Shown: positions 8,220 through 35,222, counted from the stretch's first letter. The stretch: 43,570 bases of DNA from Psammoneis japonica (GCA_008632985.1 QPGO01000162.1:124001-167570); one strand, 5' to 3'. Notes: a model not told the origin generated them from the sequence alone. Made by a program: numbers and translations.

Positions 8220-8363
8220 CCGCTATTCAACTCATAAAGAAGCATCCGACGTCGGCCCTACGGAGCTGAAACACCTGTCTCGATGACTCTGTGTAAGATT
8301 GTCGCTATTTTTCTCCTACTTTTGACTCCCTCTCTTCGAAACGTTTCTCCCTCAGTTAAGTAG

Positions 8364-10880: not shown

Positions 10881-11242
10881 TGCAAGTAACAACCCTCAAA
10901 CCTTGAGATTTTCCCCGCAATTTCGACTGGAGATGGTGTTGGAAGATGCATGATTCGCTGCAATGACCGCGTGGCGGCCAAAGGGAGGAGGGAGCAGAGT
11001 GAAACTGGCGGAATCTGGTTCAGACGCAGACTTATGGGTGTTGAACGCACGAGATGGCGAGGCGAATCTCGAGGTGACTGGCAAAGCCGGCTAATTACGC
11101 ATTAATGAAAATGTCATTGGTGATCCCGTTTTCAGAGGGAGATTTGATTGCCGGTCGATTGCTAATGACACGTGGTTGACATCAAAATCTATTGTGGCTT
11201 ACGATTTATTCCATTTCCTCGGCATTATCGTCAACATTCTTT

Positions 11243-12964: not shown

Positions 12965-13169
12965 TGTCCGTTATTCACTCTTTGTTTACCTATGATCGCT
13001 TTGTTTTATCGTTTTTGTGAGTTAGATTACGTTGTTGTTGTTTGGTGCATGTGCGTGCGGTGATCGTTCGGGTTGGGTCATTTCGACCATGTTTCGCATC
13101 TCAGAGTTCGGATTTGCGGCGCCGATGTCACAAGATCACGACTCACAAACGCGAACAAAACCGCCACCT

Positions 13170-13608
13170 ATCCGAACCATCCAAACCCTATCCTCTCTCT
13201 CTACTCTAGAGCTAGAGAGTAAGTAGCTATGGATACCTGCTAGAGAGGGCCCTACTCTCTCTCTAGCTAGAGCTACTCTCTACTAGAGAATAGAGAAACT
13301 AGCTAGAGCCTACTCTAGAGAGTAGAGCAAGGATACTGTGTAGAGAGCTAGCCCTAGTAGAGAGGGCTACTAGAGAGCTCTAGCTTCAGCTCGAGATGTC
13401 TACTTTAGAAAACCATACAGTCACGTGGACGTTACTTATCCTTCCAGACATCCGAACCAAACCCTATCCTCTAGCGGTAGAGAGAGCTAGCTAGCTCTAT
13501 TTAGAGGGCTACCGATAGGGCCTAGATCTCTAGCTTCAGCTAGTAGAGATGCCTACTCTAGAGAGCACTACAGTACAGTCAATTGGACGACATCTATGCT
13601 TCAAGACA
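13170..13608. repeat. Two-unit degenerate tandem repeat saturated with CTAG/TAGAG/CTCTA motifs
   Basis: Units start at 13170 and 13450 (atccgaacc...aaaccctatcctct) and share ctctagcttcagct, tacagtca and similar ends. Confidence 0.8.
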
Positions 13609-13809
13609 GAACGTTCAAAGCTACCGGTACGAGAAAGGAAATTCTTACATTACACACTACAGCTCCGTGACAGTCCAATACAGTGATTGCATCGCGCCCG
13701 AAACACACTACGAAACCATCACAGAAACACAAGGAATTGCTTGTCAACAACTTTGATACCATTTCCAAGGTTCAAGTTGCCCTGTCTCCAATGTGGGCTG
13801 TCTCTCTCT

Positions 13810-15049
13810 TTAGTCAAAGAGTTTGTCGGCATCATCCTTCGTGGGCGCATCAAGGATACGGGGGTGAGCAACGAGAGCGGTTTCAATGTTGCCAAAGCGA
13901 TGCGTGTACTTTTTGTACCACTCCACCGTTGCCTTAAGTCCTTCCTCCCACGACATTTCTTCCTTCCACCCCAATTCATGCAACTTGGAAGAATTGATGG
14001 TGTAACGCAAGTCGTTAAACCGACGATCGGGTACGTACTCAATGAGTTCGTCCTCCCTGTCTTGCAATCCCATAATGTCAATGAGAGTCTTGGCAACCTT
14101 GATGTTGGCGATTTCATTTTCTCCACCAATATTGTACACGTGTCCGGGAGTGCCCTTGTGTAAAATTACGTCAAAGGCGCGAGCAACGTCCTCGACAAAC
14201 AAAAAGTTGCGGGTGTTTGACCCGTCGCCATGAATCGTCACGGGACGGTCGCGAAGGAGCTGGTTGGTAAACTTGGGAATGAGTTTTTCCGGAAACTGGT
14301 GTGGCCCGTAGACGTTATTTCCCCTGGTAATGAGACAGGGCAAGTTGAAGGATCGAAAGTATGACTTGACAAGAAACTCCGCTCCTGCTTTCGTGGCAGC
14401 ATATGGGTTGGTGGGCTCCAAAACGTGTTCTTCCGACATGGGATCCGTCTCAAAGTCTTCTCCCTCTCCGTAAACTTCATCCGTTGAGACGTGAATAAAG
14501 CGCTTAATGGTAGGGCAGCATTTTGCAGACTCGAGCAGGACGTGCGTACCGTAGATGTTATCACGGGTGAAGGCGAAGGAGTTACCAAACGAGTTGTCTA
14601 CGTGAGTCTGAGCGGCAAAGTGCATCACCGTGTCAATCTGTTCCTCCTTGAGCACATAAGATACCAGATCGGGAGAAGCAATGTCTCCTTGACGAACTTA
14701 AAGTTAGGCAGGTCTTAATGTCCTCCAGGTTTGCGAGACAGGAGCAATAAGCGAGTTTGTCGTAGACAACCACGTTGTACTGCGGGTATTTTTTGCAGAG
14801 GAGAATTGCAACATGGGAAGCAATGAAACCTAAGCGAGAGAGGAAAGAATTACAGTACAGTGAGCTCTTGCTGCTTTGTTTACCGCATCAAGAGAACCGG
14901 TAGACTACTTTGCAAAACAGAGACACCTGCTTTCAAGAGTTGAGCGAGAGGTGGGTTTCGGATCGTCACTTACCCGCTCCTCCTGTGAGGAAAATATTCT
15001 TGGGAACAAAGCCTTCGCTCTCACTAGTGGTTCCATTCGTATCCGCCAT
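13810..15049 (-). CDS. UDP/dTDP-glucose 4,6-dehydratase (RHM N-terminal-like; rhamnose pathway); intron 14973-14830; two apparent 1-bp frameshifts near 14690-14715
   Basis: TGGAGFIASH, HFAAQTHVDNSF, HVSTDEVYG, NPYAATKAGAE, TRGNNVYGPHQFPEKLIPKF. Confidence 0.92.
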
Positions 15050-15842
15050 GGTGGTGAGGGGCAACACAAAGACCGGCGCTGATCGTTTTCGTTTATTGCT
15101 TTTCAGAGTTACTTCTGATGCTCGCTTTCGATCCGTTCTGTCGACCGTTGAGAAATCAGTCATTGTCGGAGTGTTTACAAAATTGGTTTGTTTTATATAT
15201 ATCTAAAATAACCAATTATTTATAAACCCTTATGTGTTCATATAAAATAATATATACATAACGCCTCATTCTGGATACACATATTATGCGAAACATGCCG
15301 TTTCGACCGTTCCAAAAGTCAGGTGACGCTGCTGACAATGGTGGTCGATGTCTGCTTGCACCTTGCACCGTCGTTGTTACGAAGATAAACGCACATTCAG
15401 CCCTGCGAGAACGTATCATGACGTTGTGCAAGATGTTCCAGTGCATCAAATGCTTTAGGAAGGGTTGAGCAATGCACTTTTGTCCTAACTCAAGAGTCGC
15501 CATGTATGTATGTTACACGTTTTGCTTACGGCTTTGCATGAAAGAGTTTGCATGGACCGAAATGCACGATGGCGTAACCAGCGAATATTCGTCTGATTCT
15601 ATCATTATCAGCAAGATGAAGGGTATAGACTGCTGATTGGCAAAACAATCCGAAAGAACTGACGATCGGACCAACTCAACGTCCTTTCCCAACGCTGCCG
15701 GCACGTTCCTGAAAGAAATCGACAGCAGTGGTTGTAAATAATCAGCGTGAGGCTTTCTCACGCTCCGAGTGATCTCAGGATGGATGAAAAAAACTTTCTC
15801 GATCACACAAAACAGCATATTGAGAGCTTGAACACATCAAGT

Positions 15843-18800
15843 ATGCGTTTACCCTGCCTTGGATTAGCGGCCGGATTGCTTTCGGTGGGGCTACCCGGAG
15901 CGACGGGCGATGCCAACGGGGAGAGATTCCTAGAACAAGTGGTGAGTTACACATGGATGGAACGAGTTGCAGTATGGATTTTTTCTCTCCTTATCGTTTA
16001 GGTACGAACTAACTTGTGATTCCATCGTGATTGCTTTTGTTGCTCACAAGAACATCCCTTCATGCCGAATCGTCGTCGCGGCTTTTGAAACTGCGGGAAT
16101 CTTGGCACAGCAGAACGAAGACCAATACCTCTACCAATGTATTCTTGACGAGGAGAGCCCGGTTAGGTTCTGTTTTCCTAGGTTTACCTGAAGACTTCAC
16201 CACGGCCTGGCAAGAGGATCTTTTCGCTGGACATTCTTTTGTCTCGATTTCGAATGCCACGATGTTCCACCCTGGCGAAGCAGTGCATCCGCATGTTCTA
16301 ATTTCGGATGGAGCAACCATTACCTTTATTGAAGCTCCCGACCGTCGCCGCCTTGAGCCAAAGAAGGAAGGGACAAGCTCGGTTCTTGTCTTGAGGTTAC
16401 CGCCCCTGACTCAAACCCCACCTTGACCAAGGACGAACTGAGCGCCCGAGTCTTTGGAATTGGGGCAGGTGCTCCTTCCGTCAATCTCAAGAGTCAGATG
16501 GATTCCTGCTCGTTTGGAAAATTGACATTGGAACCCGCGTCCGACAATGCCCTGTCGGGGATTACCAATGGCGTCGCCGATGTCGTGATTGGTTCCAATG
16601 TTACAGGCGCTTCTCCGTTGGATCTGGACGATATTGTCACAGCTGTAGCGGACGCTCAGTTTGGTACTCTTGAAGACAACTTTGACCATGTCATGTACTG
16701 CCTCCCACCTGGATCTGTTCTTGGTGGATCCACGGACTGGACGGCTTATGGATTTGTCAACTACTATCGGAGTGTCTTCAACGATGAGCAGTGTGGCTAC
16801 GTCAGTACCCAGATGCGCCAGATTGGCCACAACATTGGTCTGAGGAACTCCAATCAGGGTGCCACAACTTTTGGAGACAACACTGGATACATGGGATCGA
16901 CCTTTGCGCAGTGGGTGGACCGTCCATGTGTTACAATGGCCACAAGAATTGGCTCCTTGGTTGGTATGACGACAAGGAGCTCGATTTGGATTTGCAGAAC
17001 GATGCGTGGGGCGGAAAATTGGCAGCATTTGTTGACTACAATGAAACAGGAATAGACGGATATTCTGCTATAAAGGTGGGGGACCTCTACCTGCAGTACA
17101 ACAGGGCCAAGGACTTCAACGCTGGGACTCAAGAATTTGCAGACCGAGTAACCGTTACGCAGGCGCCTGACGACACTCGGTATCCGACTTATTGGCAGGG
17201 ATCGCTGCTAGTATGCCGGGCGTCCCTTTCAGTTTTGAGACGCAAGATTCCACCTCCAATTTCACCATTGAAGTATGTGACCACGTGAGCGGCAGCCCCG
17301 ACTACTCCTTGGTGAGCATTTATAGGCGGGCCAGCAATCCACTTGTCCATCACAGGCGCCGTCGTTCATGCCATCGACGACTCCGTCAGATGTACCAAGC
17401 GACGTTCCTTCTACCCACCCCAGTGGTATACCCTCCGATATACCTTCTTTGAGACCTAGCAAGGTGCCATCACTTTCGCCTTCTCTTGCTCCAAGCATGG
17501 GCCGACAGAACACCCAGCGACATTCCTTCTGGAGCACCTTCCACGATGCCATCTTCAGCTCCTTCAGACCAACCAAGCGAAGAACCATCGAGATCTCCAA
17601 GTGATGTACCTTCGGCGTTTCCCTCGACACTGCCATCCGCATCGCCCAGCATCGCGCCAAGTGCCATCCCAACCTCGACTCCAAGCGCCGTCCCGAGTGA
17701 TGTTCCGTCCGTGTCACCGAGTGGAGTGCCAACCACCGAACCGTCGGCAGCGCCTTCGGAGTCACCGAGTGAGACACCATCGGCGAATCCATCGACGCTG
17801 CCATCGGCATCACCCAGCAATGTGCCTAGTTCCTTCCCGAGTGATGTTCCGTCAGGGTCACCGAGTGGAGTGCCAACCACCGCACCGTCAGTAGTGCCTT
17901 CGGAGTCGCCGAGTAAGTATCCATCGGCTATTCCCTCAACGCTGCCATCGTCATCACCCAGCATCGTGCCTAGTGCCATCCCGAGTGATGTTCCGTCAAA
18001 ATCACCGAGTGGCGTGCCAACCACCGCACCGTCTGCAGCGCCTTCGGAGTCACCGAGTAAGAATCCATCAGCTGTTCCTAGTGCCGTCCCGATGATGCTC
18101 CGTCGGGGTCACCGAGTCGAGTGCCAACCACCACACCGTCAGCAGCGCCTTCGGAGTTACCGAGTGAGAACCCATCGGCTATTCCATCGACGCTGCCATC
18201 GGCATCACCCAGCAATGTGCCTAGCGCCGTCCCGAGTGATGTTCCATCGGGGTCACCGAGTTGCGTGCCAAGCACCGCGCCGTCGGCAGCGCCTTCGGAG
18301 TCACCGAGTAAGAATCCATCGGCTATTCCCTCAACGCTGCCATCGGCATCACCCAGCATCATGCCTAGTGCCGTCCCGAGTGATATTCCGTCAGGATCAC
18401 CAAGTGGAGTGCCAACCGCCGCACCGTCAGTAGCGCCTTCGGAGTGGCCGAGTGAGAATCCATCAGCTATTCCCTCAACGCTGCCATCTGCCTCACCCAG
18501 CAATGCCCCTAGTGCTGTCCCGAGTGATGTTCCGTCAGGATCACCGAGTGAAATCCCAACTACACAGCCGTCGTCAGCTCCTTCCAGCATGCCGAGTGAT
18601 CAGCCAACTACTTTCCCGAGTGATGTGCCCTCGGCCTTCCCTCGGCACTGCCTTCTGCGGAACCCAGCCATGTGCCTAGCAGCCGCCCATCCTCAGCTCC
18701 TTCGTTGTCACCCTCCGTGAATCCAAGTAACGTGCCAACGAATCATCCCAGTCTTTTTCCTTCCGAGACGCCGAGCTTTGTTCCGAGTGACATACCGTCG

Positions 18801-20507
18801 AGCACCCCAACGAAGACGCCATCAGTCGTTCCTTCCACATCGCCGAGTGCAAATCCATCCCTGTTTCCGTCCAACTTCCCATCGATGTTCCCTTCATTGT
18901 CACCGTCGCATCCTACAGTTTATGTCGATCCGTGCGATGACTCTACCAACGGAACGTTTTTTGTTGACGATCAACGTGGGCACCGCGGATGCATCTGGCT
19001 TAACAAGAAGCCTGAGTGGCAAGCCTCCCTCTGCAACCCAGGCCACGATGCATATGATGTTTGTGCTGAAACTTGCGGCAAGTGTAGCGACTCTTGTCAC
19101 GACACCGATGGTGAGGAGTTTTGGGTAAACAACGTTCAACGGTATAAGAATTGTTCGTGGTTGGCGGTTTCGCCCGGTTTTCAGATCGAACTCTGTCACA
19201 GCGAACACGAGGCGTACGAACTTTGTCGCGAGACATGCAACAACTGTCTTCCACCGGTGCCTACTTCTGAGCCTTCTGACACGCCCTCGTTCCCTCCTTC
19301 CGCTTCACCTTCGAAGTTTCCTAGTCAGTCTCCATCATTCTCACCAACGCAAGCTCCTTTCTACGTCGACCCTTGTGACGATTCGGTGAATGGTACATTC
19401 TTCGTGGATGAACAAAGGGGGCATCGGGGATGTGTATGGCTGAACAAAAAACCTGAATGGCAATCAAGTCTTTGTATTCCTGGTCATGACGCTTATGATG
19501 TTTGTGCTGAAACTTGCGGCAAGTGTACAGATTCTTGTCATGATATAGTTGATCAGGAGTTTTGGGTAAACAATGTGCAACGTTATCAGAACTGTTCATG
19601 GTTGGCGGTTTCGCCCGGTTTTCAGCTCGAGCTGTGTCACGATGAGCACGACGCGTACGAAATTTGCCGCGAGACTTGTAACAATTGCCTTCCACCCGAG
19701 TTTTTATTTCCCTCTTTGCCTCCATCCGGATTGCCGACTGGGGCGCCTTCAGTTGCTCCTGAATATGTTGATCCATGTGATGACTCATTTGAAGAAACAT
19801 TTTTCGTCGACGAAGACCGGGGCGAGCGGGGTTGCATTTGGCTCACCAAGAAACCGGAGTGGCAAGCTGTTCTTTGTGTTCCTGAGCATGATGCTTATAG
19901 TGTTTGCGCCGAGACCTGTGGGAAGTGTACCGACTCATGCCATGATACCGAAGACCAGGATTTCTGGGTGAATAACGTACAGCGGTACAAGAATTGTTCG
20001 TGGTTGGCTGTGAGTCCAGGCTGGCTGGTTGAACTTTGCTATGAGGGCCACGAGGCGTACGAGCTTTGCCGAGAGACTTGCGACAACTGCCTTGCACCAC
20101 ATTTGACCCCATCGACACCTCCAACTGTTGCTCCCACAGTCACACCTACGACGATTCCGGATGATCAGGAACAGCTTATTGACAGCTGCGATGATTCCTA
20201 CGATCAAACGTTTTTTGTTGATGCCGAACGCGGCTACCGCGACTGCACATGGCTTGCAAAGAAGCCGCTGTGGCAACCGCTGATGTGTGATCCTTCCCAC
20301 GCTGCCTACCACATTTGTGAGGAAACGTGCGGCAAATGTACCGACAATTGTGACGACGAGGTAGATGTGGATTTCTATGTCAACGATGTACGTCTTTACA
20401 AGACATGTGCATGGCTTGCTGTCCGTCCTGCTTGGCGTGCTCAACTTTGTCACGAAGGACACGAAGCCTATGAATTGTGCCGAGATACTTGCAACAGTTG
20501 TGATTAA
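15843..20507 (+). CDS. Large secreted protein: M11 (gametolysin)-like peptidase domain with degenerate Zn motif, Pro/Ser stalk and C-terminal Cys-rich repeats; several apparent frameshifts
   Basis: Signal peptide MRLPCLGLAAGLL...; QMDSCSFGKL, DHVMYCLPPG, WTAYG, QMRQIGHNIGL, GDNTGYMG, MCYNGHKNWLLGWY; PSxx repeats; CxxTCxxC-ending modules. 5' exon structure uncertain. Confidence 0.75.
17350..18915 (+). repeat. Coding PSxx tetrapeptide repeats with a 144-bp (48-aa) higher-order unit
   Basis: ccatcggc.a.tcc recurs at 17777 and 17921. Unit approximates PSAIPSTLPSASPSNVPSAVPSDVPSGSPSGVPTTAPSAAPSESPSKN. Confidence 0.9.
18920..20504 (+). repeat. Four coding Cys-rich repeat units (8 ShK-like modules)
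   Basis: DPCDDS..TFFVD..GCxWL.KKPEWQ..CAETCGKC followed by FWVNNVQRY.NCSWLAV..CRETCNNC, repeated four times. Confidence 0.85.
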
Positions 20508-20542
20508 GGACATATTGAATATGTTTTAACTGTAAGCCACAA

Positions 20543-20899
20543 TGTGGGATTCTACCTAGGATACAGGTCCTATCTGTAGAATGTACTGCTGACAATCAGT
20601 ACAAGGTACTAAAAGCCAGTAAAATAGCAATGAGTTGTCTTACTAACTCGTGCTTAGTTGAAATTATGAGCTAAAACTAATCTAAAAGTGAATCTCTCGT
20701 TTTGTGATCCGAAAGATCTTGGATAATGCCACGTCAGAAAATAGACATTCTTCGAATGTCACTCACGTAGAATATGTACTAAGAGTCACGGCGTAAGTTC
20801 GTCACTTGAATTGTCCTTTCCGATGTCCAACTCAGCCGTATGGAAATGCTAAGAAGATTGGACGTCCTGAGATGTCCACAGTCATACTAAATTGTCACA
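20543..20899 (-). repeat. Copia 1 3' LTR (TpA-retaining copy)
   Basis: TG...CA ends; lies 35 bp beyond the host stop codon ending at 20507; aligns ungapped with 26685-27041. Confidence 0.97.
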
Positions 20900-20942
20900 C
20901 TCCTTTTGAAAGTGTCGGGTGAAGCTGTGACTTGATCTAAAA

Positions 20943-23900
20943 TCACCACTTGAGCAGCTTCTTTCGAAGGCGAGCAAATGTGTTTTGAGGCACTGGCTTG
21001 GTCTCCATGTCTGCAATTTGTTCAGTGGTGTCAATGGGTGGAATGGAAATGATTCCCTTCCTAACATGTTCCTTGAAATGATGCAGCGCTGGGTTGAAAT
21101 GCTTGGTTCTTGGTCTCATCTTGGGCAGTCTTGCAATTTCCAACGTGCCTGAATTGTCCTCGAATGCCTTGCAATGAACCAAAGGAGTCTTGGATGGCAC
21201 CTTGTGTCCATGCTCTTGAAATTCCTTGATCAAATTGATGACAGGAATGGCGCTTCGGAGGCTCTCGGATGAAGCGACACACTCGGCTTCTGTCGCACTT
21301 AGCGCGATTTGTGTCTGAAGCTTGGATGTCCAAACGACAGGGCAGTCTGCGCAGGCAACAACGTGCCCTGTCCTGGACTTTGAAGTGCTAACGTCATGAG
21401 GGGCAGTCATTTTGTTCCAATTGCCTGCGAAGTTGGCATCGGCACGAACTTCCAATGACTTGTCTTCCGTTGGGTCCAGAATGATGCCTTCATGTCTGGT
21501 TGCTCACAAGCACTTGCAGAGCCATGGCACTGCCTCACCGTGTGATCATTTGGGGTCACTTGAAAATCGCGTGACTTGATGCACAGTGTGCGCGATGTCG
21601 GGTCGAGTGCTCTTCTCCAGAAAATTCAATTTGCCGATGATGCTGCGACAGTCGAAGGATCCGTCAAAAGATTCTTGGTTCTCATGTCGATGCAGCATCT
21701 TTGAAGACGCTGCTGGAGTCTGCTTGTCTGGCACACGACGAGGTGAGTTCACCATTTTGAGCATTTGCTTGATCATTTGTGGTTGCATCAGCTTCATTCT
21801 GCCATCAGGCAGTGTCTCGATGTTGACACCGAGGCAGTCGTCAATGTTTCCTTGATCATCGATGTCGAAGATCGCGTTGCGGATGTCTTCAATTGCCTTG
21901 TCAACAGCATCCTTGTCTGGTGATGCAAGTGTGCCATCGTCAACGCAGTGCACCAAAACAACATTTCCTCGACAACAAAGGCATTCATCGACTTTTGATT
22001 GTTTGAATCCGATTTTCAACAATCCTTCTCGCAAGTGCTCACCCCACACTCTCCCTGCTTGTTTCTGTCCACACAGGTTCTTGAGTGATTTCAACACATG
22101 GGTTCTGCCATTGCCGCACTTGGTTTCGACGCCTTGTGGCAGCTCCATGCACATGTCAAATTCGATGTCGGCGTGAGGACAGGCAAGAACGAAGTCGACT
22201 TGGCGAGTGTGCCATCAATTAAAAACGGACAGCATGAGTGGGAACCGCACAGTGTTCCAATTGACAACTGCTGCATGAGTCTGAAAATGATTGACTGCAT
22301 GCTCTTGTTTTCCACCGTGCACATTGAGCCTTGACTTGCACTCACACACTTTTCTTGTCTTGATGTCTCTTTTTCTCTTCACAGACCACACCGCTGGGAG
22401 CATGTTGACTCCCTCTGGAACTTCTTCGACAGGAATCAGTTTCCAGTTTTTTTGTTCAATGTGATCATTGACTTCCTTGATGCAAGCCTTGATGAACTCG
22501 TCTCGGTCTGGTTCATTCATGGCTTGATCAAAATGCATGGCATCTGGGTCCGTCCTGGCTAAGAATGCGAAAGGTGAGTCCATGTTGTCTTGCATCTTGT
22601 AGTCGCCCTTGTGCATTGCATCGCAGCACTCGCAATGGGTCGACAGATATGATGCGATGCCGGCAGTTCGTTGTTGTTGACTTTCTGCCTTTCATTGCGT
22701 TGGTTTGCGTGCTCTGCCAGCCCTGCCAACACTTGGTTGTTCTGGCACCGTCTCTTGAGAGTCTTCAGGTGTCGTGTCTTCTGCTGATTTGGGCGTCTCG
22801 TCTTCAGCAATGGGGAAATGCTCGTCTTCGAGTTGTTGCGGAACATTGGGTTCCGGTGTCGAAGTGTTCTGTGCTGGCGCAGCAGAGCGAGGCTCCCTTG
22901 CTTCCCTTTGTGGCTTGAAGACATTGAATCTTGATGCTCTTTGCTTCTTGAGTCCTGATGCGGTTTGCCATTGCGAGAACGCAGGTGCATTTCCTGCTGA
23001 AGGGCGCACCGTCTCGAAGAAGTCATCAAATTGAACATGAAATTGCAGAGAGGCAAGTCCAGTCTCGAGGTTGAGCACTAAATTGACTGATCCAGCGTGT
23101 CTCGGAGATGGTCCCAAGTTGATTCCTAACCTTGCTCTTGATTGCCACTTGGGTGCTCTCTGTCCACTCTGCAGTCGGTTGTCAAGCGCATGGACGGGGC
23201 ATCCGAAAGTGTGGTGTTGTTTGAGATTTGGAGCAACCTTGACGGAGGCGAATCGTTCGATTGGAGAGCTGCCATCTTCGTGGTTGGGCATGTTGTTCTT
23301 GAGCTCATTTGAATTGCGCAGCGCACTTGGCCAGAGATTGATCTCAACAGCCGTTGGCCATCTTGCTTTCGCATGCAGCAGCTGTTTGCAAGTCTGTTCT
23401 TGCAGGTCTCGGATTCGCTTTTCAGCAACACCATTTTGGAAGTGGGCGTTGACGCCGCAGCATGATGTGGTTTGTCCTTGTTTCTCAACGTCTTGTGTGA
23501 AAGCGTTGTCAGCAAATCGTCCGTTGTCGGCATGGCAGTGTTTGATTTGGACATGATGTCGTCTCGCAAAGGCTTCGAAAGCGTGCTTGGCTTTCAGGGT
23601 TTCCTCGGAGGCAAGTGATCATTGCAGGAACACATGTCCAAGTTTGGAGTGGTGATCGACAAATGCTGTTGCTGCTCTGCATTGCTGTTTTGCAGGTCTC
23701 CCTTTGAGTTGAGGGACAAAGCCTGGGGTTGAGCTTTCAAGCTGATCTGCTGATGTGACCTCTCCTGGCTTTGCAGCGACATGTGTGTTTGACTTGCATC
23801 TGGATTTGGCACGCCAAGGGCGTTTGGTCATGGCGCCACAGAGGCAGCTGGCACATTTGGGTTCCTTGACCTTCAGGAGGCATCGCGGAAGGACACCCAA

Positions 23901-25136
23901 CACAGCCAGGAGCTCAATCATTTTGAATGATTGGTGTCGGAGGCGACAGTGCCAACGCAACAATTCACCTTGGTCGTTGGTGGCCACCAGGGCATCATCG
24001 TCAGGGATGACGTTGATGGGATCTTTGAGTTGAGAGCGGACGTCTGGGGTCGCTAGATCCTTGAGGTTCTCATCAGGTGAGTCGGATCTGTGTGCAGCAT
24101 CTGTCAGTTTGAACAACAGTGGCACGTCCTCATCAACGTTGTTGCATGCGCCTTGGGTCTTGTCAGGACCTGTCTCGTCAGGACTTGTGAAGGCGTCTTT
24201 GTGATTCGCAGCATCCGCGGACTCAGGGTCACTGTCGTCGTCTGGAGGCATCACGTGCGTTTGACAGGCTACGTGCTCGACAGTCTCGACATTGTTGTCA
24301 GCATTGACTGCGGCGGCGAATGCCCAATGATCGGCAGCACCGGGTGCGGAACGGAAGCGTGCAACGTTGGAGTTGTTGGTCCAAGGGACCAGCCTCGTGT
24401 GCTTCCTTTGATCCCACATGAGTGGGAGGCCGTCGTCTCGGTTCCAGGAAGTCGTTCCGTGTGGTTCAGGACAATGATCCTGAGCTTGCTGGCTCCATTG
24501 CTGAGGGCAGAGGAGGCAAATGGGCAAGTTGGGAACATGCAGTGCGTCGTGTATGGTGATCGTATGCACCTGTCCGTCGTCGTCTTCGATGCACCACTTG
24601 AGTGTGCCCTCTCCTTCTGCGTCTAACCATCCGCCTGCTCCCTTGATCTGCTTGTTTGCAGGACGTAGGTCACCAACAAAGTGTGATCCATCGTTCGACA
24701 TTGTGCAGGTTGCGTGGTTGTTGATGCCGACAATGAAGGAGTCGTAGTCGCAGGACACTGGCTCCGTTCTTGGCTCTCTTTTGAATGGTGTCGTGGTGGT
24801 CGAGGTGTTGGCGTAGACCGTTTCGCGAAAGGTGATCTCGCATTGAGCTGTCTTGCACGCAATTCGAGTGGGATGGCCCTTCTTCTTGTGAGTGATGTAT
24901 CGCGGTGAGTGTCGACTCTTGTTTCGTCGTGGTTTGCGTGTGCCAGTCATGCTGTCAGCTGGGATTTGCGAAATGATCCACTCACCCAACGTCATTGCTG
25001 ACTTAGACACGCGTTTCCACTTCTTCTCTGGCAGGTTGAGCGTCGTAAACACTGTGAGCACCAACAGTGGAGCCATGGCATCTACGAAGCTTGTGGTGAC
25101 CAGGGCAATTGCAAACGCGACAAGCACCGCCTTCAT
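20943..25136 (-). pseudogene. Copia 1 pol (PR-IN-RT-RNase H), broken by stops
   Basis: ORF pieces 23619-25136, 22692-23291, 22215-22616, 21546-22154 and 20943-21455 carry Copia motifs with Tyr replaced by Cys/His. Confidence 0.93.
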
Positions 25137-25172
25137 GCAGAATGCCCATGTCCGGAGCGCCTTCCGGACTGG

Positions 25173-26600
25173 TCATTCCTCGGACTCGTGATCCTCGATG
25201 ATTGAGGCCAGAGCGTTGGCATGGGAAACTTTCTTGTTGGAGTCTTTCGTTCCGCTTTCGGATTCTTGAGCTCTGCAAAGTTGACAACCTTTGTCTCCCG
25301 GATCATCAGGTGAGTGAGCTGCCCAAGCAGAGTGGTGCTTGCACCAACAACATTCTCTTCCCTTCTGACTCTTGTGATGATGCTTGTGCCCATTGACAGT
25401 CTTCGTAGGATCACTGTCCTTTGGCGGAGTCTTCTTCCAGGCTTCATCCTGTTTCTTGGCGCGCTTTGGGTTCTTGCTCTTGTTCTTGGAGCTCTTGCTG
25501 CCACCTCCCTTGGACTTGCTGGGACCACTCTTGAGAGCCTTGGAGAGCTTGAGGTTGTGATCCTTGATGGTCTCGACTTCCGTGGTAAGTGCGACAATCC
25601 TTTCCTGCTCAGGAGAGAGTGCTCCCCACTTGTCTGCTCGATCGAGGTTCGTGCACTTGTTGAGTGCTAGCTGCATGACTCGTTCCGGAGTGCAGTCCTC
25701 ACCGTCGTCGCACTTCTGTTCTATGTCAGCCATGCACTTGACGAATGCTTGATCGCTGGCTGCTGCGCATCCTTTGAATGGATTGACCACAAGGTCATTG
25801 CAGCCTTCTCCCCCAGCTCTGAGTCCGTCATGGTTGAGTTTGACGTGCTTGTTGAACTCCTTGATGTTTGAGTTGCAGGTCGACATGCATGAGTCAAGGC
25901 TGGACAAGTTCTTGCGGAAGCAGTTCGCGGTTGAGCGAGCATCCACAATGGCCTTCTGAGTGAGTAGTTTGAAGAACAGTGCACCGACTTGTGCTCCATT
26001 GATCTTGCATTGCTCACTTTCGGCGATGATCTTGTCTCTAGCTTCCACAGTTAGGGTCTGAGAGATCGCCTCAGCCATTTGGACTTGGTTCTGGGCTTGC
26101 CTTGACTGAGCAGCCATGCAGGCAGTAGCGTGGTCGCGCACGTTTTGTGCGGCAAGTCTGCCATGCTCGGTGATCAAGTCTCGAGCGATTCCATTGCTGT
26201 CAGGGATCGACATGATGTTTCCCGTTCCTGACTTCCATCCTGACTCTGCTGCTCATTCGTTGAGAACTTCACAGAATTTGTTGAGACCTTCAGAGTCTCT
26301 GTTGAACTCGTGAGGCAGTGGAGCCGCAGCAGCATTCCAGAGCTTGAGACCTTGCGAGGTGCCGCAGTCCATCCAGTTGTTTGGATGGTGCTGACCAGAG
26401 GTCAATGCGAACATGGGTCCTGCAGCAGGTGCTGCAGGAGGAACCGGAGGCACTGGAGGTGCTGGAGGTGCACCTCCTCCACCACCACCTCCTGGAGGGA
26501 CTGGTGGAACCGGTGGAACTGGCGGTGCTGGCACAGGTGCACCTGCCGGAGCGGCAGCAGGAGCTGCAGCAGGAGCTCAAGTCGCAGCAGACGAGGTGCG
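25173..26600 (-). pseudogene. Copia 1 gag with Pro/Gly-rich N-terminus
   Basis: ORFs 26253-26534 and 25173-26213; Lys-rich region, WCKHH..W..H motif and acidic tail; located between the 5' LTR and pol. Confidence 0.85.
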
Positions 26601-26684
26601 GGTGGTTGCCATTGTTGGATGGTTTGGGTCTCGATCAATGGCTGGCTTGAAATCGAAGTTGCGAAGCAGGTCGCAGAGGAAGCG

Positions 26685-27041
26685 CGTGGGATTCTACCTG
26701 GGATGCAGGTCCCATCTGTAGAGTGCACTGCTGACAATCAGCACAAGGTGCTAAAAGCCAGCAAAATGGCAATGAGTTGTCTTGCTGACTCGTGCTCAGT
26801 TGAAATTGTGGGCCAAAACCAATCTAAAAGTGAATCTCTCGTTTTGTGATCCGAAAGATCTTGGACAATGCCACATCAGAAAATGGACATTCTTCGAATG
26901 TCACTCACGTAGAATGTGGACTGAGAGTCACGGCGCAAGTTTGTCACTTGAATTGTCCTCTCCGATGTCCAACTCAGCTGCATGGAAATTCTAAGAAGAT
27001 TGGACGTCCTGAGATGTCCACAGTCATGCTAAATTGTCACA
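26685..27041 (-). repeat. Copia 1 5' LTR (TpA-mutated copy)
   Basis: About 30 substitutions versus the 3' LTR, 21 of them TA->TG/CA. Confidence 0.97.
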
Positions 27042-27118
27042 CACAACACTGTCATTTCTGAGTTCAAGGGACTTCATAGAACTCTCTAGTTGCAGTTTTG
27101 ATGTCATTGGAGTTGCTG

Positions 27119-27480
27119 GAACCAAAGGGGTGAAGTGGCGTTGTTGGTCAAGGCATGGCTTGAGGTGCTTGCGCTTCTTCTCCTTTTCGTGGGCTTCTGG
27201 GACTTTTTCTGGATCTTTCAAGCAATGCAATTTTGCATCCGTGTCTGTGACTCGGACGTCGAAGATGGCATCAGTCGACCTTTGCCACCAACCTTGCACC
27301 AAAATGTCACCTCGGTCACCGTCTTTAGACTTGTGAAGATTTGCAGAGACGTTGGCTTGCTCATTCTTTCCAGTGTCATCCGTTGAGCTCCTTGAGTCGC
27401 GGCCAGGGCCAACTGAAGGTTCGTCACGCACTGAAGAGGGCTTGGTGGATTTGCTGAAGAGATCAGCTGGCTCGTCTCTG
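27119..27480 (-). mobile_element. CRE-like non-LTR retrotransposon, 3' part (restriction-like endonuclease), truncated
   Basis: EIRDE...RGDILVQGWW..DAIFDVRVTD..EKEKKRKH..C...RHFTPLV. Continues RHDE|IRDE from 35223 once Copia 2 is removed. Confidence 0.85.
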
Positions 27481-27547
27481 ATTTCTGTCAGCCTGTCTAT
27501 CTGCACATCGTGTGATGGACAGACTGGACACGGATGATGGCCAGACC

Positions 27548-28101
27548 GACGTGTTCCAGCCGCACGTGAACCAAATCGTGCACAAAAACGACATTTGCGC
27601 GATTTTTGCGCGGTCCCTAACTTACGATCGAACTTTCACAACCAAAAGTATAGATTTATACAAATATAAATGTTTTGCAACACTAACAAGACTCGTGTGA
27701 GTGTTGCAATATCATTGTTATTGTGCTATCTATGTTTTTCATTGCGTTAAAAGATTCGTAACACAACGGATGATTTTCGGCGAAAATGTTGCCGTTATTT
27801 GGATGTTACCTAAATATATCTTTCTACGATGCTAATTGGTAGGTTTTCTACCTACGAAAAAATCTCAGTATAAATCTACTGACGTACAATCAGTATTGAG
27901 TCTACTGAGGAAGTTTATGATATATATCCCATGAGGATTTGAATACCCCTCAAAAAACTATTTAAATGTTCATACTCTGGAAGCCTATAAAAGTCAATCC
28001 GTCTAAGTATTTTTATGAAAATGCTATATACACTAAAATATACATAAATTATATTCAAAATCCGATTGTCGTTTTGTGCGTCACCTGGGACTGAACACAC
28101 C
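27548..28101. mobile_element. 554-bp AT-rich MITE-like insertion in the Copia 2 5' LTR
   Basis: Absent from the 3' LTR. Flanked by a GACC duplication (27544-27547, 28102-28105). Imperfect inverted ends gacgtgttc / gaacacacc and subterminal gcacaaaaacgaca / tgtcgttttgtgc. Confidence 0.88.
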
Positions 28102-28415
28102 GACCATTTAGATGGACGAGCAGATCTCTCTGAGATCTGCTTCTCACTCTTTTCTTGCTGGCACTCATGTTGTCACAGTCCTGGTACTTTGGGGAGTCTT
28201 TCACATCATTGTCGCCTCTCACCTTCAGTGTTCTGTCAGGTTGTGGCCACACGCTGTGCCACAAACCTCTGCGCCAAGCTTTCTGTTGCGACTCATCTGT
28301 TTTGTGAGCCGATCGAGCAAGCCTCATTGTCTGATCTGACAATTTTTTTCTCGCTTTCCCGGCATTTTTCACGACTGTAGAAACATGCCAGATTTCTGCG
28401 TGTGCATGACCAAAA

Positions 28416-30460
28416 ATGCCCTCACCAAGTGAAACCATGGCGTCTCCAGACCTTTCAAAGGCCGATCCGTCATCCATTGCAGAGATCCATTGTGAACTCC
28501 AAGAACATGCAACGATGCCTCATTTCCACACAACTTTGAACAAGACACATGCGGACTCCACATTTGATCTGGACTCGTCCTTTGACGATCCAGAGCGTGC
28601 TCAACCGAAGAAAGATTTTGTTGACACATTTCAAGATCATCTCGTCAACACGGCGTTCCCACCTTGCACGGTTCATCCTGTGGACACACAGCCTGTCAAG
28701 ACGATTGTGGACGACGCTGTGTTCCGCGTTGTTGACTCTGCCAGGCCTCGTGCGATCCGCATGATGCCCGCATCTCTCTTGTCGATCATCAAGACCAATC
28801 TCCGCAACCATGATCAAATCACATGTGTCATCATCTCTGCACACCACATTGACGTTGACCCAAACATGAAATGGAACCATGAGGATTGGAAAGAGTTCTC
28901 TCTCACACCCCACCCCCAGAACCCACAGCCCACACCTTCATCTACGACTGGTTCAGGACCCACCACAGTTGGCATGAATGACTTGATCACTGCCCTCAAT
29001 GAGTTTGCGTCGAGCCACGCTCCGCCTTCTCCAGCTTCTGCCAAACCGCCTGGAAGTGCCGCATCTTCCGTTGCATCGAAGTGCCTCTTCAATCCGAGCA
29101 CACTGCCTGCAGATGTTCGTGAACGCCACGACCGCAAAGAAGCCGGTGAAGTGACCCTGAAGAGCTCTCTCGTTCATTGTGATCATGGATTCCGTCATCA
29201 CATTGATGCATCTGATCGTGTCATTCTCAATGATGGCACTCTCTTCATCATGAGCTCGACTCCTGATCAGAAAATGCTGTTCAGGGAACCTCCAATGTGT
29301 CATGATGACTCTCCCCCTGGGATGCGTGCATGGTGTCAAAATTTCCAACGTCATGCCTTTGATTCAGGATGCCACATGCATCCCTTGTGGTGTTTTGCTA
29401 AAGACCACGGTGGTGAGAAGGGTTTCGAGATCGGAAACGGCAAGGACGATGACTTGCCTCAACACATGCACATCCACTGCAAGGAAGCTCAAAGCTCTCT
29501 CCACAAGATCCCATCCAAGTTGGATGTGTTCCCCAAGAACAGCAAACATCATCAGATTGTTGCATCATGCTGTGGCAACGGGTGCAAGGCTCTCAAACAG
29601 ATTGTCTGCGAGAATCATCCTGCTTTTGACCACGACGCTGCTGGACTAGTTGACTCCCATCCTGTCCAGGGCAATTGATCATTGACAGATTGTCACATGA
29701 TCTTCAATGATTTCCTGCAGCCACGTGCCTGCATCTTTGACACAGACTCTACGTTGGATGATTCACGAGAGATGACTGTTTTCATCAAGAACACCAAGCA
29801 TTCCAAGTTCTTGTCTCGTGCCACCAGAGATGAACAAAGTCTCCAGCCATGCTCAAGAAGTGTGCACAGATTGTTGAGACTCTCTCTGATTTCCCCCACC
29901 AACCGGATGGCCCATCCCTCACCACTCGTGCCACACCATCCAATCCCCACCGTGAATGGACTCGAACACCTGAGGATGCACGACGCACGGCTGTTGATGT
30001 CAATGCTCTCAAGGTCCCTGAAATCCCTCCTTTTGAACCAGTCAATGACACTCCTCCTGATGACACTGTCACAGAATCTCCACCTCCAGATGCCTTTGAT
30101 GCTTTTTGTGATGAATTGCATGAACTTGAGATCCCTTCTGCGGACAAAGATCAACTTCTCCGACATGCACACTCGGCTTTAGTTTACAAACTGAAAGTCA
30201 CTCCGAATGAAGCCTCCAAGAAACCATGTCTCATCTGCTCCGGCGAACATTCATTCGATGGCTGTCCAGTCTTGCAGAACAACCCATGCATCAAAGGATT
30301 TCACATCCAATTTTGTCAATTTTTGAAGAGGGAAGCAGCCATGCGTGCTTCTAAGTTCCAAGGACCCCAAGGTCTGCTCCCACCTCATCATGAAAACCCT
30401 GCAATTCCTCCTGCATCTGGTGCTCCGCCATCGGATTTTCAATTGGGCCGTCGCAGCTAG
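28416..30460 (+). pseudogene. Copia 2 gag
   Basis: ORFs 28416-29678 and 29849-30460; CLICSGEHSFDGC zinc knuckle; ends SDFQLGRRS*. Confidence 0.85.
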
Positions 30461-30482
30461 TTTCAGATCTCCGACGCTGCCC
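30433..30482 (+). promoter_or_regulatory. Putative -1 ribosomal frameshift signal at the gag-pol junction
   Basis: G GAT TTT heptamer in the gag frame, 5-nt spacer, stem GGGCCGTCG / CGACG(CT)GCCC. The -1 frame is open into the pol ORF at 30502. Confidence 0.7.
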
Positions 30483-30501
30483 ATTTTCTCCTCACCGAGA
30501 C

Positions 30502-33500
30502 ATGACCAATGTCAGCGGGATGACAATGAAAGAGGGGCTGACCGTCTCGTCATCTGCCGCTGCAATGCCTCTTTCTTCGCAGATTGACATGGATGCCACC
30601 CCTTCCACTGCCACGAAGGCATCATTTGATGCCAGCAAGTTGCCAGATGATGACCCTGCTCCTCTGGAGGACACCATCGATGCTGCTCCTGCTCCGGATT
30701 CTTTGGAACAGGGGAGGGAAGACCCAGAAACACCGGATTTTGAGGAGCACATTGACCTCACCTACAATGACATGGCTGTTGAGGATGGCTTTGCTGCTGT
30801 CAACTCTGTTTGTGTTGCTCCAATTGATCCATGCCAAGCCACTCACTCTCCTGAACCGGAATTGCTGCGCTCCACTTGTTCTGTCAACGGGGTCAACTTT
30901 GCTCCGAATGAACCTTGTGCTCAGTTGGATGCTGGCGCTGACACAGCATGTGCAGGCGACTGTGAACTTCTTCATCGATGTCAAGAATTTACTCCATCCC
31001 ATCCCTGCCCTCTTGCCGTCAATCTGGCACTTGGCCATCATGCTGTCCCAGTTGGATTCGGATGCCTCCGCATTCCCGCAGAGAACTCCAACGGATGTGT
31101 TGAGGTCTGCACCTGTTGCCACCCGCAGATCCGATCTACGTCAGTCGATGAGCACCCACTGCTTTGCCAGAATGGCACTCATCACGCCGATTGCAATGTC
31201 GACTGTGTGCTGAAGTTCCATGATCTTGGCACCTGCAAGTTTGTTGCACGACGCTGATTGCGCAAGAATCAGGACATCATCACACATGGGAAGCTGATCA
31301 ATGGCAAATGCTGTGCTCACCCTCTCATCCTCCCTGACTCTCACATTGAATTGGATGCATCTGTCGAGTGCCTCAAGAACAGTGACCCTTCTTTTGCCAA
31401 TGAGTGTGAAGGGGTCTCTGCGCACATGATTGAAACATGCAGCACGCACCAACATGAAGCTCTTTGTAACGAACGGAATTTGATTCCCCGAGTCTGTCAA
31501 GATGTTCCTTTTGAGGATTGTGCCGAGAAGAACATTCCTGTCCAGTCTCTCAAGGCCGACACGGAACGCGTTTTATGGCATCAGAGACTTGGTCATCCGA
31601 GTGACCGCTGCCTGTGTCATGCCCATGAACACGTGGACGGTGTCCCCAAGTTTGCCCACGGCACTTCTCCTCTCAACACTTGCCCTGCATGTGTGCGCGC
31701 TAAGCAGACAAAGGAACCTGCAGGTCCAAACACTGCTCTCACTGCCACCCAACCCTGCCAAGGCCTCACGGTTGATTTTTTGTTCTCTGGATTGCGATCC
31801 AAGAACTCGGAGTGCACCAAGGACTGCATTGGGTTGAATGGCAAGACTTGTTGGATCACTGTTTGTGATCATAAAACAAAGCGTCTCCATGGTGCGACTC
31901 GTGTTTCCAAGGCAACTCCTTTGAATTGGCTTTGACACTTTCTGGAAGAGCACTCGCCAAAATGTCCAGATGAGCATGTGTTCATGGATCAAGGAGGTGA
32001 ATTGCATCAGAATCCGGAGGTCCGACAACTTTTCGAGGATGACTTTCACTGCGCAATTCATCCCACGGGAAAAGATGCTTTGAATCAGAGTGGCCCAGTG
32101 GAACACAGTCATTTGTCTGTCGCCAATGCCATTCGGGCGATGCCAGTTGGTGCTGACTCACCCATGAAATTCTGGCCCTGTGCTTTCCATCATTTCATTC
32201 ACATCAACAATGCTGTGCCATCCTGTGGACAAGCTGCTGCTCTGATTGCTCTCGCTGCTGGTCGCAAGGATGATTTCAAGAACTTTCACACATTTGGTTG
32301 CCGTGTTTGGGTGCATGCTTCGAATCACCGCCCAGCGAAGTTTTGGTCTATCTCTTGCAAGGGCATTTTCTTGGGCTGCCTTCCGGACACTGCCAAGAAC
32401 ATCCTGTGGCATGACACCGAGTCATTGCGTGTCAAACTTGCCAAGCATGTCCATTGTGATGAGGGGATGAATGATCTCCCCCGAGACTCCATTCCCCCGA
32501 ATGTGGTTCACTTGGAGCGTGCTCAAGATGGCAAGGCTCCACCTGCCGACACTGACAAATCTACGATGGATGAGTTTCACTTCCATGGCAATCCTTTTGC
32601 AAAGACCATCACGCGCACAATGAAGGGCCCATTTGCTGATCCTGCATTTGGAACGTCATTGGCTGCAGATGATCTCTATCGGCAAGTGTTTGTCTTGGAC
32701 ATTGAACATGGCTCTCCTGCTGCGCGTCTTTTCTCTTCTTTGAAAGCAACCCGTGAGAAGATCAAGGGTGAGTGTGTTGCATCAATTGATGATCAGCCTG
32801 TCTTTGCGGCGGAGGAGGCCATCAAGCATCTTCAACAAGTGTGTGATTCTGGCAAGACTCATTTTGAAATCGAATTCGTGCCAGGACGTCACCTGGACTC
32901 CCAGGCTCTACAACGTGCTTTGATGGAACACAATGTCTGTGCACCGACCCCTGATCCTGATGATGAACATGTCCTGGAGACAACCAATGCTGACATGCGC
33001 GCCATTGCCACCATGTGCCATCCTGATGTTGATTTTTCCAAGATGGACAATGATGACGTTCCTCCGCTGTTTTCCATCGACCATGACAATGGTGTGGTTT
33101 CTATCTGTGCTGTTTCATCTCATGCTGTTGCTCCAGAGGAACAGGCATTGGGCACTTTCACTTGCCATTGCCTCAAGAAGCTGGGTGCGTGGCCCGAATG
33201 GCACGCTGGTGAACTCAAGCAACTTGATCAATTTCATGAGTTAGGAATGTTTGGTGCCCTGATTAAACGTCCAAAGGATGCCATTGTACTTCGTCCACAT
33301 TGACAATGTGACCTCAAGCATGATGGCACACGACGATCTCGACAATGCTGCGATGGATCTCCCTGTGCTGCCTCGATTCTCCATTTGACTTCACTTGACC
33401 TGCTCCTCTTGTGTGGAACAACCCATCCAACGAATGTTCTTTGCCCTTGCTGCAACAATGAGCTGCCCTGTCTTTGGTGGTGATGCCTGTGATGCCTGTG

Positions 33501-34844
33501 CACATTCTCTGATGCATGTGCGACTTGGTGCATGGCTTGGTTTGGCATTGAATTGGACAGGAGCATGGTGCTTCCAATGCAACATGCACTTCAAGGACAC
33601 CCGGAAGCTGGTGTTCTATGAGAGACGCATGTCAACGGCATCTTGTCTGATGTGAATCTGCTTTTTCGCAATGCTGCTCATGACAAATGCATCCACTCCG
33701 CTGCTTTTGAAGGACATGAGATGCTGCTCCTTTGTCAGGTTGATGATTTCTCCCTTGTGTGTCCTGAAGAGTCCCTTGCAATCCAAATCTACGACAAAAT
33801 TGGCAAAGCTCTTCAACTGGAGTTGCAACTTCTCCGCCCTTCAAGCATCTTGGTGTGATTGCAGAGTTCAATGGTGTGGACATTCATCAATGTGATGACT
33901 CCATTGGTGTTGCTGTTCACAGTCATGTTGATCGGGTTTGCACCTTGCATGGATGGTTGACACTGACAGATGAGGAACTCAACGATGACTGCAAGGCTGT
34001 GCCAATCCCGGTCGACTCTGTTCAAGAACTGCACACTGCCATTGGTCCAGCTGAAGGAACCCCGGAGCATGCGGAGTTGCAACAGGCTGTTGGATTTGGT
34101 TGTTGCACTTCACTTGGTGAATTGTTGCATGCGCATGTTGTCTGCCGATTGGATGTTGGACATGCCATCACCACCCACTCCAAGTTCTCTGCTTGCCCTG
34201 TGATGGTTCACCATGCTGCGCTCAAGGGTGTCTGCAAGTGCCTTCGACGTGCCAAGCAAAGGGAACTGAACCACAAGAAGCCCAATTGAGACTCGCGATT
34301 GCCTGCCTGCCCTTTTGAACGTCTCACTCCGGACCCGACCCTGCCGTCGTTCCCTTTCCCCGAGCATGATCATCAACTCATTGCCTTTTTGGATGCCGCA
34401 TGTGGTGATGATCTTCATAACCATCGCTCTACGACCGGACATGCATGCATGTTAGCCGGAGCTGCTGTGTCTTTCCAGTGCAAGACTCAATCGGTGACAG
34501 CTGCGAGTTCAACGGAAGCGGAATTCTGCACTGCTGGCACTGCTGCCAAGCATGTCCTTTGCCTTCGTCACATCCCACATGACCCGGGCTTCTCTCAGAC
34601 AAAGCCAACCCCGTCACACATTGACAACGAATCGGCGATCAAGATCATCAAAAATTCGATCCCGACCAAGCGCTCCCGTCACATTGAAATCCAGTTTTTT
34701 GCGATCCAAGAATGGAAGGAAGTGGGCAAGATTGTCACAAGACACATCCCTGGCATTGTCAACCCCAGCGATGACCTCACCAAGGCCCTTGGCTGGGCAC
34801 TGCATGCTCACCACGCTCGACACATGATGGGACACTGCTGTTGA
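30502..34844 (+). pseudogene. Copia 2 pol (PR-IN-RT-RNase H), broken
   Basis: ORF pieces 30502-31257, 31258-31935, 31978-33303, 33855-34289 and 34299-34844 carry Copia motifs. Confidence 0.92.
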
Positions 34845-35022
34845 TGTTTTTTTCCGCGGTGGCTCCCCTGCTGCGCATTGCCCTCCTTGTTTGATTGCAC
34901 ATTGAGCAGGGACACTCATTGTGTCGTGTGTCTGGTCTCTCTGTTTTTTTCTCACATCATCCCTGTTCTTTGGTTTGATCTGCACTGTTCTCTATGATGA
35001 GTCATCACAGATCAGGGGAGGG

Positions 35023-35217
35023 TGTCAGCCTGTCCATCTGCATGTCGCATGATGGACAGACTGGATGCAGATGATGGCCAGACCATTTGGACAGACGAGC
35101 AGATCTCTCTGAGATCTGCTTCTCACTCCTTTCTTGCTGGTGCTCGTGTTGTCACAGTCCTGGCACTTTGGGGAGTCTTTCATGTCATTGTCGCCTCTCA
35201 CCTTCGGCATTCTGTCA
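35023..35217 (+). repeat. Copia 2 3' LTR
   Basis: TG...CA ends, preceded by the PPT and followed by the TSD. Confidence 0.95.
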
Positions 35218-35222
35218 ATTTC

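Follow-up and report, generated by a model that had tools for sequence, protein, structure and literature searches.

To our knowledge, targeted hypermutation as a genome defence was previously known as a C>T process, as in fungal repeat-induced point mutation (RIP) and the APOBEC enzymes. A counterpart restricted to TpA and changing A:T to G:C has a single report, a 2026 preprint on the viral insertions of one chlorarachniophyte, in which mutation-accumulation lines of Bigelowiella natans were sequenced with Illumina (Mettrop et al., bioRxiv 10.64898/2026.01.13.699255). According to that preprint, 231 of the 302 nuclear point mutations lay in the integrated nucleocytoplasmic large DNA virus (NCLDV) and virophage, and 230 of these 231 were A>G or T>C, every one of them at TpA. 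The hypermutation rate was ~6e-7 per site per generation, ~1000-fold above background, in 11 of 15 lines. The same source also reports TpA-depleted genes bearing reverse transcriptase (RT) and DDE domains, and proposes an ADAT2-like DNA adenine deaminase, with an argument from the U that precedes the edited A; the terms LTR (long terminal repeat), retrotransposon and diatom do not occur in its main text. Here, we describe TpA hypermutation in Copia 1, an LTR retrotransposon at positions 20543-27041 of a 43,570-nt stretch from the diatom Psammoneis japonica (GCA_008632985.1 QPGO01000162.1:124001-167570). This whole stretch is called the window, and all coordinates are window positions.

The signature matches the TpA hypermutation only just described, and the window adds a new lineage, a new target class, near-saturation, and evidence on timing and targeting from LTR pairs. 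An earlier note on this DNA, made from the sequence, knew of no described genome-defence system with this signature; the B. natans preprint has overtaken this statement. Full-text searches returned no description of the TpA signature in diatoms or elsewhere besides that preprint.

TpA loss in the LTR pairs

Copia 1 is a Ty1/Copia LTR retrotransposon with an LTR pair, a 5-bp target-site duplication (TSD) and an RVT_2 domain. The direct repeat 20544-20843/26686-26985 extends to two 357-bp LTRs, which are bordered by the TSD CACAA at 20538-20542 and 27042-27046. All long homology-bearing frames of the element are on the minus strand, and therefore the LTR at 20543-20899 is the 3' LTR. The parts of Copia 1 differ in their TpA content, given below as TA counts and as the observed/expected ratio (obs/exp):

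20543-20899, minus strand: 3' LTR of Copia 1, spared; 29 TA, TpA obs/exp 0.89
20900-26684, minus strand: interior of Copia 1; 30 TA, TpA obs/exp 0.09
26685-27041, minus strand: 5' LTR of Copia 1, hypermutated; 7 TA remain, TpA obs/exp 0.27

Using an ungapped comparison over the 357 bp, we found 30 differences between the two LTRs. In 21 cases TA of the 3' LTR stands against TG (11) or CA (10) of the 5' LTR, and no site sets TA against CG. The TA-type differences are one-sided (21/29 vs 0/29, Fisher p = 2.6e-9). At three further sites CG in the 3' LTR stands against TG or CA in the 5' LTR, that is, the CpG changes are also on the hypermutated LTR (3 vs at most 1). The other differences are one AA/AG, one GA/GG, one TT/CT and two transversions. 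One of these transversions also destroys a TA, so 21 of the 22 TA-site changes are transitions. By simple arithmetic from this pair, a TpA is lost at ~100 times the rate of any other site; the 5' LTR lost 3 of ~13 CpG as against 21 of 29 TpA. The earlier note had given the same coordinates and counts, including the complete lack of TA to CG changes, and our recount returned identical values. At its first base the LTR reads T (TG) in the spared 3' copy, position 20543, and C (CG) in the 5' copy, position 26685. This is the sole CpG-type difference that opposes the others, and it adjoins the primer-binding side.

An LTR pair alone cannot orient its own differences, and an outgroup test was therefore run. 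For the alignment with the Copia 1 polyprotein, 59 homologous Copia polyproteins were drawn from the 120 top-ranking hits out of 800. Columns with Tyr in at least 70% of the homologs were taken as conserved Tyr columns (n = 28); conserved columns overall numbered 507. It turned out that the Copia 1 copy has Cys at 16 conserved Tyr columns, His at 9, and Tyr, Ser and Leu at one each, with no Arg. In other words, conserved Tyr codons (TAY) read TGY (Cys) or CAY (His) at 25 of 28 columns. Other conserved residues are retained, namely Trp at 14/14, Asn at 16/16 and Gln at 17/20 columns. Among the 93 departures at the 507 conserved columns, 27 are single TA>TG changes and 15 single TA>CA changes (42 together), and 8 are of CpG type. 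As an outgroup set we used 78 related Copia loci from metagenomes, none of which has a TpA obs/exp below 0.3 (median 0.60, minimum 0.36). The loss of conserved Tyr, the retained Trp and Gln and the normal relatives show that TA is ancestral and TG/CA derived in Copia 1, which excludes RIP. The polarity proposed in the earlier note (TA to TG/CA, opposite to RIP) is thus borne out by the conserved Tyr columns and the normal TpA of the outgroup loci; the possibility it had raised, that outgroup copies show TG/CA as the ancestral state, was checked, and the relatives have Tyr and TA at normal TpA frequency. A native avoidance of TA by the element family is ruled out by the same 78 loci.

The polyprotein of Copia 1 occupies a single frame from 26252 to 20943 (1770 codons), in which TGA occurs six times internally, TAA and TAG never, and Tyr only five times. 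RVT_2 was found at residues 1276-1502 (E = 2.7e-24), and gag_pre-integrs precedes it with 27.8 bits, slightly below the cut-off of 28.4. By tblastn, the element matches full-length Copia polyproteins in a single frame. A representative-library search with the RT open reading frame (ORF) of Copia 1 yielded no close family copies, the best match being 61% identical. Two of the best 120 homologs, P0002 and P0017, are Copia polyproteins partly converted from Tyr to Cys/His. In P0002, the closest public relative, 16 of the 28 conserved Tyr have given way to Cys (14) or His (2), a strand bias that is absent from the window. In the representative search, 6 of 135 evaluable hits (P0367, P0377, P0378, P0380, P0411 and P0467) have Cys or His at 40% or more of the reference Tyr positions, and a hypermutated query favours such hits.

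The second element provides another LTR pair:

27486-35217, plus strand: element 2, Copia-like, TSD ATTTC; interior TpA obs/exp 0.07
27486-27547 and 28102-28238, plus strand: 5' LTR of element 2, interrupted
35023-35217, plus strand: other LTR of element 2
27548-28101: insertion in the 5' LTR of element 2, resembling a miniature inverted-repeat transposable element, 554 bp, AT-rich; 53 TA, TpA obs/exp 0.91
31258-31932: gag_pre-integrs of element 2
31936-33300: ORF of element 2 with SH3_retrovirus

In 195 aligned nt, LTR pair 2 shows 14 substitution events, of which seven are adjacent TG<->CA doubles, three are TA vs TG/CA, three are of CpG type and one is of another kind. A TG<->CA double is two independent opposite-strand changes at one ancestral TA, and seven such doubles in 195 nt cannot come from ordinary substitution. 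This shows that both LTRs of element 2 were acted on after integration.

TA-depleted domains and their surroundings

In 1-kb bins the window shows two states of TA content. Using a two-state segmentation on TA counts, we called four TA-depleted domains, at 1-6100, 9551-11000, 20951-27600 and 28201-37150, with a total of 23,150 bp. TpA obs/exp is 0.08 in these domains vs 0.60 in the remaining 20,400 bp of host DNA. This corresponds to 113 TA observed in place of 841 expected at the host ratio, so that ~87% of the expected TpA is gone. The products are in excess, with obs/exp in depleted vs host DNA of 1.66 vs 1.11 for CA and 1.61 vs 1.17 for TG. CG is reduced as well (0.55 vs 0.99), with low CpG values in each of the four domains (0.13-0.75); besides TA, no dinucleotide other than CA, TG and CG moves. 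AA, AT and TT are unchanged between depleted and host DNA (AA 1.13 vs 1.14), and AG is 0.99 vs 0.98. GC-biased gene conversion is ruled out, as AA, AT and TT are untouched. The depleted domains contain Copia and Gypsy-type remains. Depleted DNA outside Copia 1 and element 2 comprises:

1-6100: depleted domain, TpA obs/exp 0.07; Integrase_H2C2 in a minus-strand ORF at 1750-2388
9551-11000: small depleted domain, TpA obs/exp 0.08; no domain recognised
27047-27480: spacer between the two LTR elements, outside both; 3 TA, TpA obs/exp 0.12
35223-37150: right flank of element 2, nature unclassified; 7 TA, TpA obs/exp 0.07

The two LTR pairs and the depleted flanks that are not LTR support the earlier note in its proposal of a DNA-level, strand-symmetric action after integration.

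Copy number was estimated from reads of one public sample (runs X1-X3). In X1, the summed k-mer depth of 35223-37150 is 41-86, which is not above that of the host-gene bins, and this flank is therefore regarded as low-copy. The bins of the 554-bp insert reach 6083-15315, which makes it very high-copy. The ends of this insert resemble inverted repeats, it comes with a 4-bp duplication, GACC, and of all repeats in the window it alone has normal TpA. Low-copy DNA is thus affected, a high-copy insert is spared, and LTRs that were identical have met different fates, which argues against targeting triggered by homology. The same contrast points to a positional state, or to episodes older than the 554-bp insert.

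Surviving TA in the depleted domains is poor in TAT (10% vs 26%, chi-square p = 7e-10). In LTR pair 1, read by hand, the strand offering TAC was changed at 6/6 sites where only one strand offered TAC. An analysis of context in the coding region is confounded by the detectability of changes. There are thus weak indications of a T-A-pyrimidine context preference.

On both strands of the depleted domains TAA and TAG are nearly absent, and as a result long spurious ORFs are open in several frames and on both strands; over Copia 1, for example, 13 ORFs reach 120 codons or more. Gene prediction on DNA of this sort would return too many proteins. The affected elements gain GC along with losing TAA and TAG, and they lose Tyr, so that domain searches fail. 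The block at 2401-6100 looks the oldest of the depleted DNA: its CpG obs/exp is 0.13, TpA 0.05, CA 2.05 and TG 1.73, and its pyrimidine-purine steps are almost entirely CA or TG. No recognisable protein domain was found in 2401-6100.

Host genes of the window have a TpA obs/exp of 0.48-0.63, and Tyr makes up 1.3-3.7% of host ORFs. The host ORF at 18624-20507 (plus strand, stop at 20505-20507) ends 36 bp before the spared 3' LTR of Copia 1. In the host gene at 16357-20507, PT-rich tandem repeats with periods of 72-395 bp come after a gametolysin (Peptidase_M11) domain; the main period is 144 bp, at 17680-18549. Between host genes, 13201-13600 is very rich in TA (28 and 23 TA per 200 bp), which means that TpA-rich DNA is tolerated outside the depleted domains. 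The named homologs of the first host ORF are all from diatoms (Cyclotella cryptica, Mayamaea pseudoterrestris, Odontella aurita). Those of the second are from Cyclotella atomus, three Thalassiosira species, C. cryptica, Phaeodactylum tricornutum, C. cf. meneghiniana and Chaetoceros debilis. These homologs are at best 58-64% identical, and a protein-cluster look-up of a host ORF led only to broad eukaryotic clusters. The host exons run without interruption over 521, 470, 455 and 295 codons, which is long, and two alleles of the host flank are visible in the reads; B. natans is haploid, and its genes average 7.8 introns with a mean exon length of 159 bp (PMC12730881). The window thus comes from a diatom or a near relative of diatoms and not from B. 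natans.

In a methionine-synthase-reductase-like gene (36600-39060), the part binding flavin and nicotinamide adenine dinucleotides (FAD/NAD) lies in one open frame, 37495-39057, and the linker, which is just upstream in homologs, sits in another frame at 37302-37523. For the flavodoxin domain of full-length homologs, the TA-depleted 2 kb upstream of this gene gave only weak matches. The gene may be truncated at its 5' end or damaged by the neighbouring block of transposable elements (TEs).

Proposed mechanism and alternatives

The window shows that silenced mobile-element DNA underwent a context-specific A:T>G:C transition at TpA after integration, on either strand. A change of the top-strand A gives TpG, and a change of the bottom-strand A gives CpA. 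Since either change destroys the palindromic TpA target, CpG never results. The process ran nearly to saturation over contiguous domains, non-repeated spacer and flank DNA included, and stopped sharply at host DNA, leaving untouched the Copia 1 LTR that abuts the 3' end of a host gene. We propose that the domains are the silent chromatin of the elements, marked by 5-methylcytosine (5mC), as the decay of CpG is restricted to them. In this scheme the activity would be recruited to silent chromatin and not to sequence homology, and the transcription unit of the host gene would shield the 3' LTR of Copia 1. Adenine would be deaminated to hypoxanthine by a TadA/ADAT2-like polynucleotide deaminase and replicated as G; the natural tRNA substrate of TadA/ADAT has a U before the edited A. 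The outcome would be an irreversible inactivation of the element, with Tyr replaced by Cys or His throughout the polyprotein, and its role would probably be defensive. We give a probability of about three in four to this explanation as a whole, that is, post-integration TpA hypermutation in silenced element domains with presumed chromatin targeting and deamination. The identification of the enzyme as an adenine deaminase is tentative.

The TG/CA state was sought in the reads as a check on basecalling. X1 contigs are identical to the window over eight TA-free stretches of 346-1211 nt, at a k-mer depth of 33-41:

27190-27537, 29865-30210, 30717-31242 and 32234-32742: first four exact X1 contigs
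32925-33333, 34037-34560, 35155-36133 and 36121-37331: last four exact X1 contigs

Altogether 2828 X1 contigs match the window, many of them from diverged copies, and the differences are mostly transitions. Among the 23 best-supported difference events in TE parts, five are TG<->CA doubles and five are of CpG type; two change a residual TA of the window to CA, and one changes a TG of the window to TA. Run X2 gave contigs of the host flanks only and X3 gave no contigs, and neither is counted as evidence either way. The exact contigs carry the TG/CA state over TA-free stretches, and the artefact that the earlier note had asked to be checked is therefore unlikely.

Several observations weigh against the proposed explanation. 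X1, whose library type is unrecorded, is possibly the source sample of the assembly itself, and 21261-21398 of Copia 1 is covered only by a diverged contig. The left edge of the domain 20951-27600 lies within ~40-100 bp of the inner edge of the 3' LTR, which spreading of chromatin does not predict. The interior of Copia 1 is more depleted than its 5' LTR (0.09 vs 0.27), and part of the interior loss could predate insertion or follow a gradient. The scheme also leaves unexplained why the high-copy 554-bp insert is untouched. The evidence from LTR pairs and outgroups is historical and does not concern ongoing activity. The enzyme, the chromatin mark and the transcript of the scheme are putative. 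A primary lesion of thymine would explain the data equally well, since TpA is palindromic.

Such a primary lesion on T would arise if the thymine of TpA were oxidised in silenced DNA to 5-hydroxymethyluracil (5hmU) or 5-formyluracil by a TET/JBP-type dioxygenase and then mispaired with G, giving T>C. Oxidised thymines do mispair, and 5hmU favours TpA in dinoflagellates. The TG:CA outcomes of 11:10 and the Cys:His outcomes of 16:9 suit T>C as well as A>G, but neither such bases nor such enzymes are evidenced here, and we consider this origin unlikely. The 6/6 choice of the TAC side is reminiscent of U-A-C in the anticodon loop of the tRNA that TadA edits; it equally reads G-T-A for T and does not discriminate. 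A quite different source of A>G would be error-prone, Pol-eta-like WA>WG synthesis while mismatch repair acts on the deaminated 5mC of methylated elements, a candidate named in the earlier note. In its favour are the CpG decay of the depleted blocks (0.55 vs 0.99) and three further LTR differences, A>G or T>C changes at non-TA sites. In antibody genes, however, the Pol-eta signature also targets AA and contains many transversions. Here AA is not depleted, AG is not raised, only one transversion occurs in 22 TA-site changes, and near-saturation would require implausibly many repair tracts. This candidate therefore fits poorly and is very improbable.

If the retrotransposon RNA were edited (UA>UG) by an ADAR- or ADAT-like activity prior to its reverse transcription, new copies would already be mutated on arrival. 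The two partly converted public relatives suit this idea, P0002 with a significant sense bias (Cys 14 vs His 2, p = 0.004), as does the stronger depletion of the Copia 1 interior. However, LTRs within one insertion differ in both pairs, both strands are equally affected in the LTRs, the spacer and flank that belong to no element are depleted, and a polyprotein that has lost 25/28 conserved Tyr would have been incapable of self-mobilisation. Neither the LTR differences nor the depleted flanks can be explained by editing at the RNA stage, although it might contribute elsewhere; as an account of the window it is highly unlikely. An error of assembly or basecalling on modified DNA in unpolished repeats has even less to recommend it. 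The depletion does track repeat blocks, and the platform of both the assembly and X1 is unrecorded. Against this stand the exact k-mer contigs of up to 1211 nt, the TG and CA outcomes interleaved on one strand with never a CG, the absence of frameshifts over 1770 codons, the depletion of a low-copy flank but not of a very high-copy insert, and the same spectrum called from Illumina data in B. natans. The opposite polarity, a RIP-like CpA>TpA change in the 3' LTR of a natively TA-poor element, can practically be dismissed. It draws on the inability of an LTR pair to orient changes and on the 3' LTR passing the classical RIP indices (TA/AT 1.04, (CA+TG)/(AC+GT) 0.92). The outgroup test refuted it by the Tyr, Trp and Gln columns described above; besides, 1770 codons hold no TAA or TAG, related elements have normal TpA, and the host is a diatom and not a fungus.

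Comparison with known systems

With the same signature in diatom LTR retrotransposons, the process probably occurs widely in algae and has a part in shaping the repeat content of their genomes. LTR pairs offer targeting studies an internal clock and, where one LTR is spared, a built-in control. It is possible, though we would not yet expect it, that diatoms and chlorarachniophytes, distant algae of the stramenopile-alveolate-rhizarian (SAR) group, share a TpA-specific DNA base-editing defence. This would most simply be a natural adenine deaminase acting on chromosomal DNA and recruited by silencing state rather than homology. It would erase essentially every TpA of a retrotransposon in situ and spread into sandwiched unique DNA; an expressed host gene next to the element would keep it away, which would be why one LTR of Copia 1 stayed intact. 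If the enzyme proves to be a natural adenine deaminase of DNA, it would be of direct interest for base editing, and diatoms include transformable model species in which the enzyme could be searched for.

Like fungal RIP, the process in Copia 1 is a dinucleotide-specific transition hypermutation that irreversibly inactivates transposons. Ascomycete RIP changes CpA to TpA, raises AT and makes stops from Gln and Trp codons, whereas the direction here is the opposite. RIP is also triggered by homology or duplication before meiosis and affects both copies, while here one LTR and a high-copy insert are spared and a low-copy flank is affected. With ADAR and APOBEC editing the window shares deaminase-type transitions with a preference for the 5' neighbour, which for ADAR is a U before the edited A, as the preprint notes (10.64898/2026.01.13.699255). 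These enzymes act on RNA or reverse-transcription intermediates, with strand bias and before integration, and leave changes shared by both LTRs; the changes here are post-integration and on both strands. Decay of methylated CpG occurs in the same blocks and also yields TpG and CpA. Unlike the process described here, it cannot remove TpA, and it was slower in Copia 1. CpG methylation has been reported for tested LTR elements of Phaeodactylum, in a paper whose text contains none of the terms RIP, hypermutation and dinucleotide (PMC2806351).

The closest system is that of B. natans. In both, the changes are confined to TpA, give TpG or CpA depending on the strand and are nearly all transitions; they are restricted to invasive DNA in sharp contrast with the rest of the genome, and single-copy DNA can be a target. 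The two differ in host, a diatom (stramenopile) here and a chlorarachniophyte (rhizarian) there, and in target, LTR retrotransposons and their flanks in place of viral insertions. Depletion in the window is near saturation, with obs/exp 0.08 as against 0.45 for the NCLDV region of B. natans, and it coincides with CpG decay, which we set down as a further difference. The evidence is historical in the window and comes from de novo mutations in B. natans. Across a diatom and a chlorarachniophyte, we likely see the same kind of TpA hypermutation.

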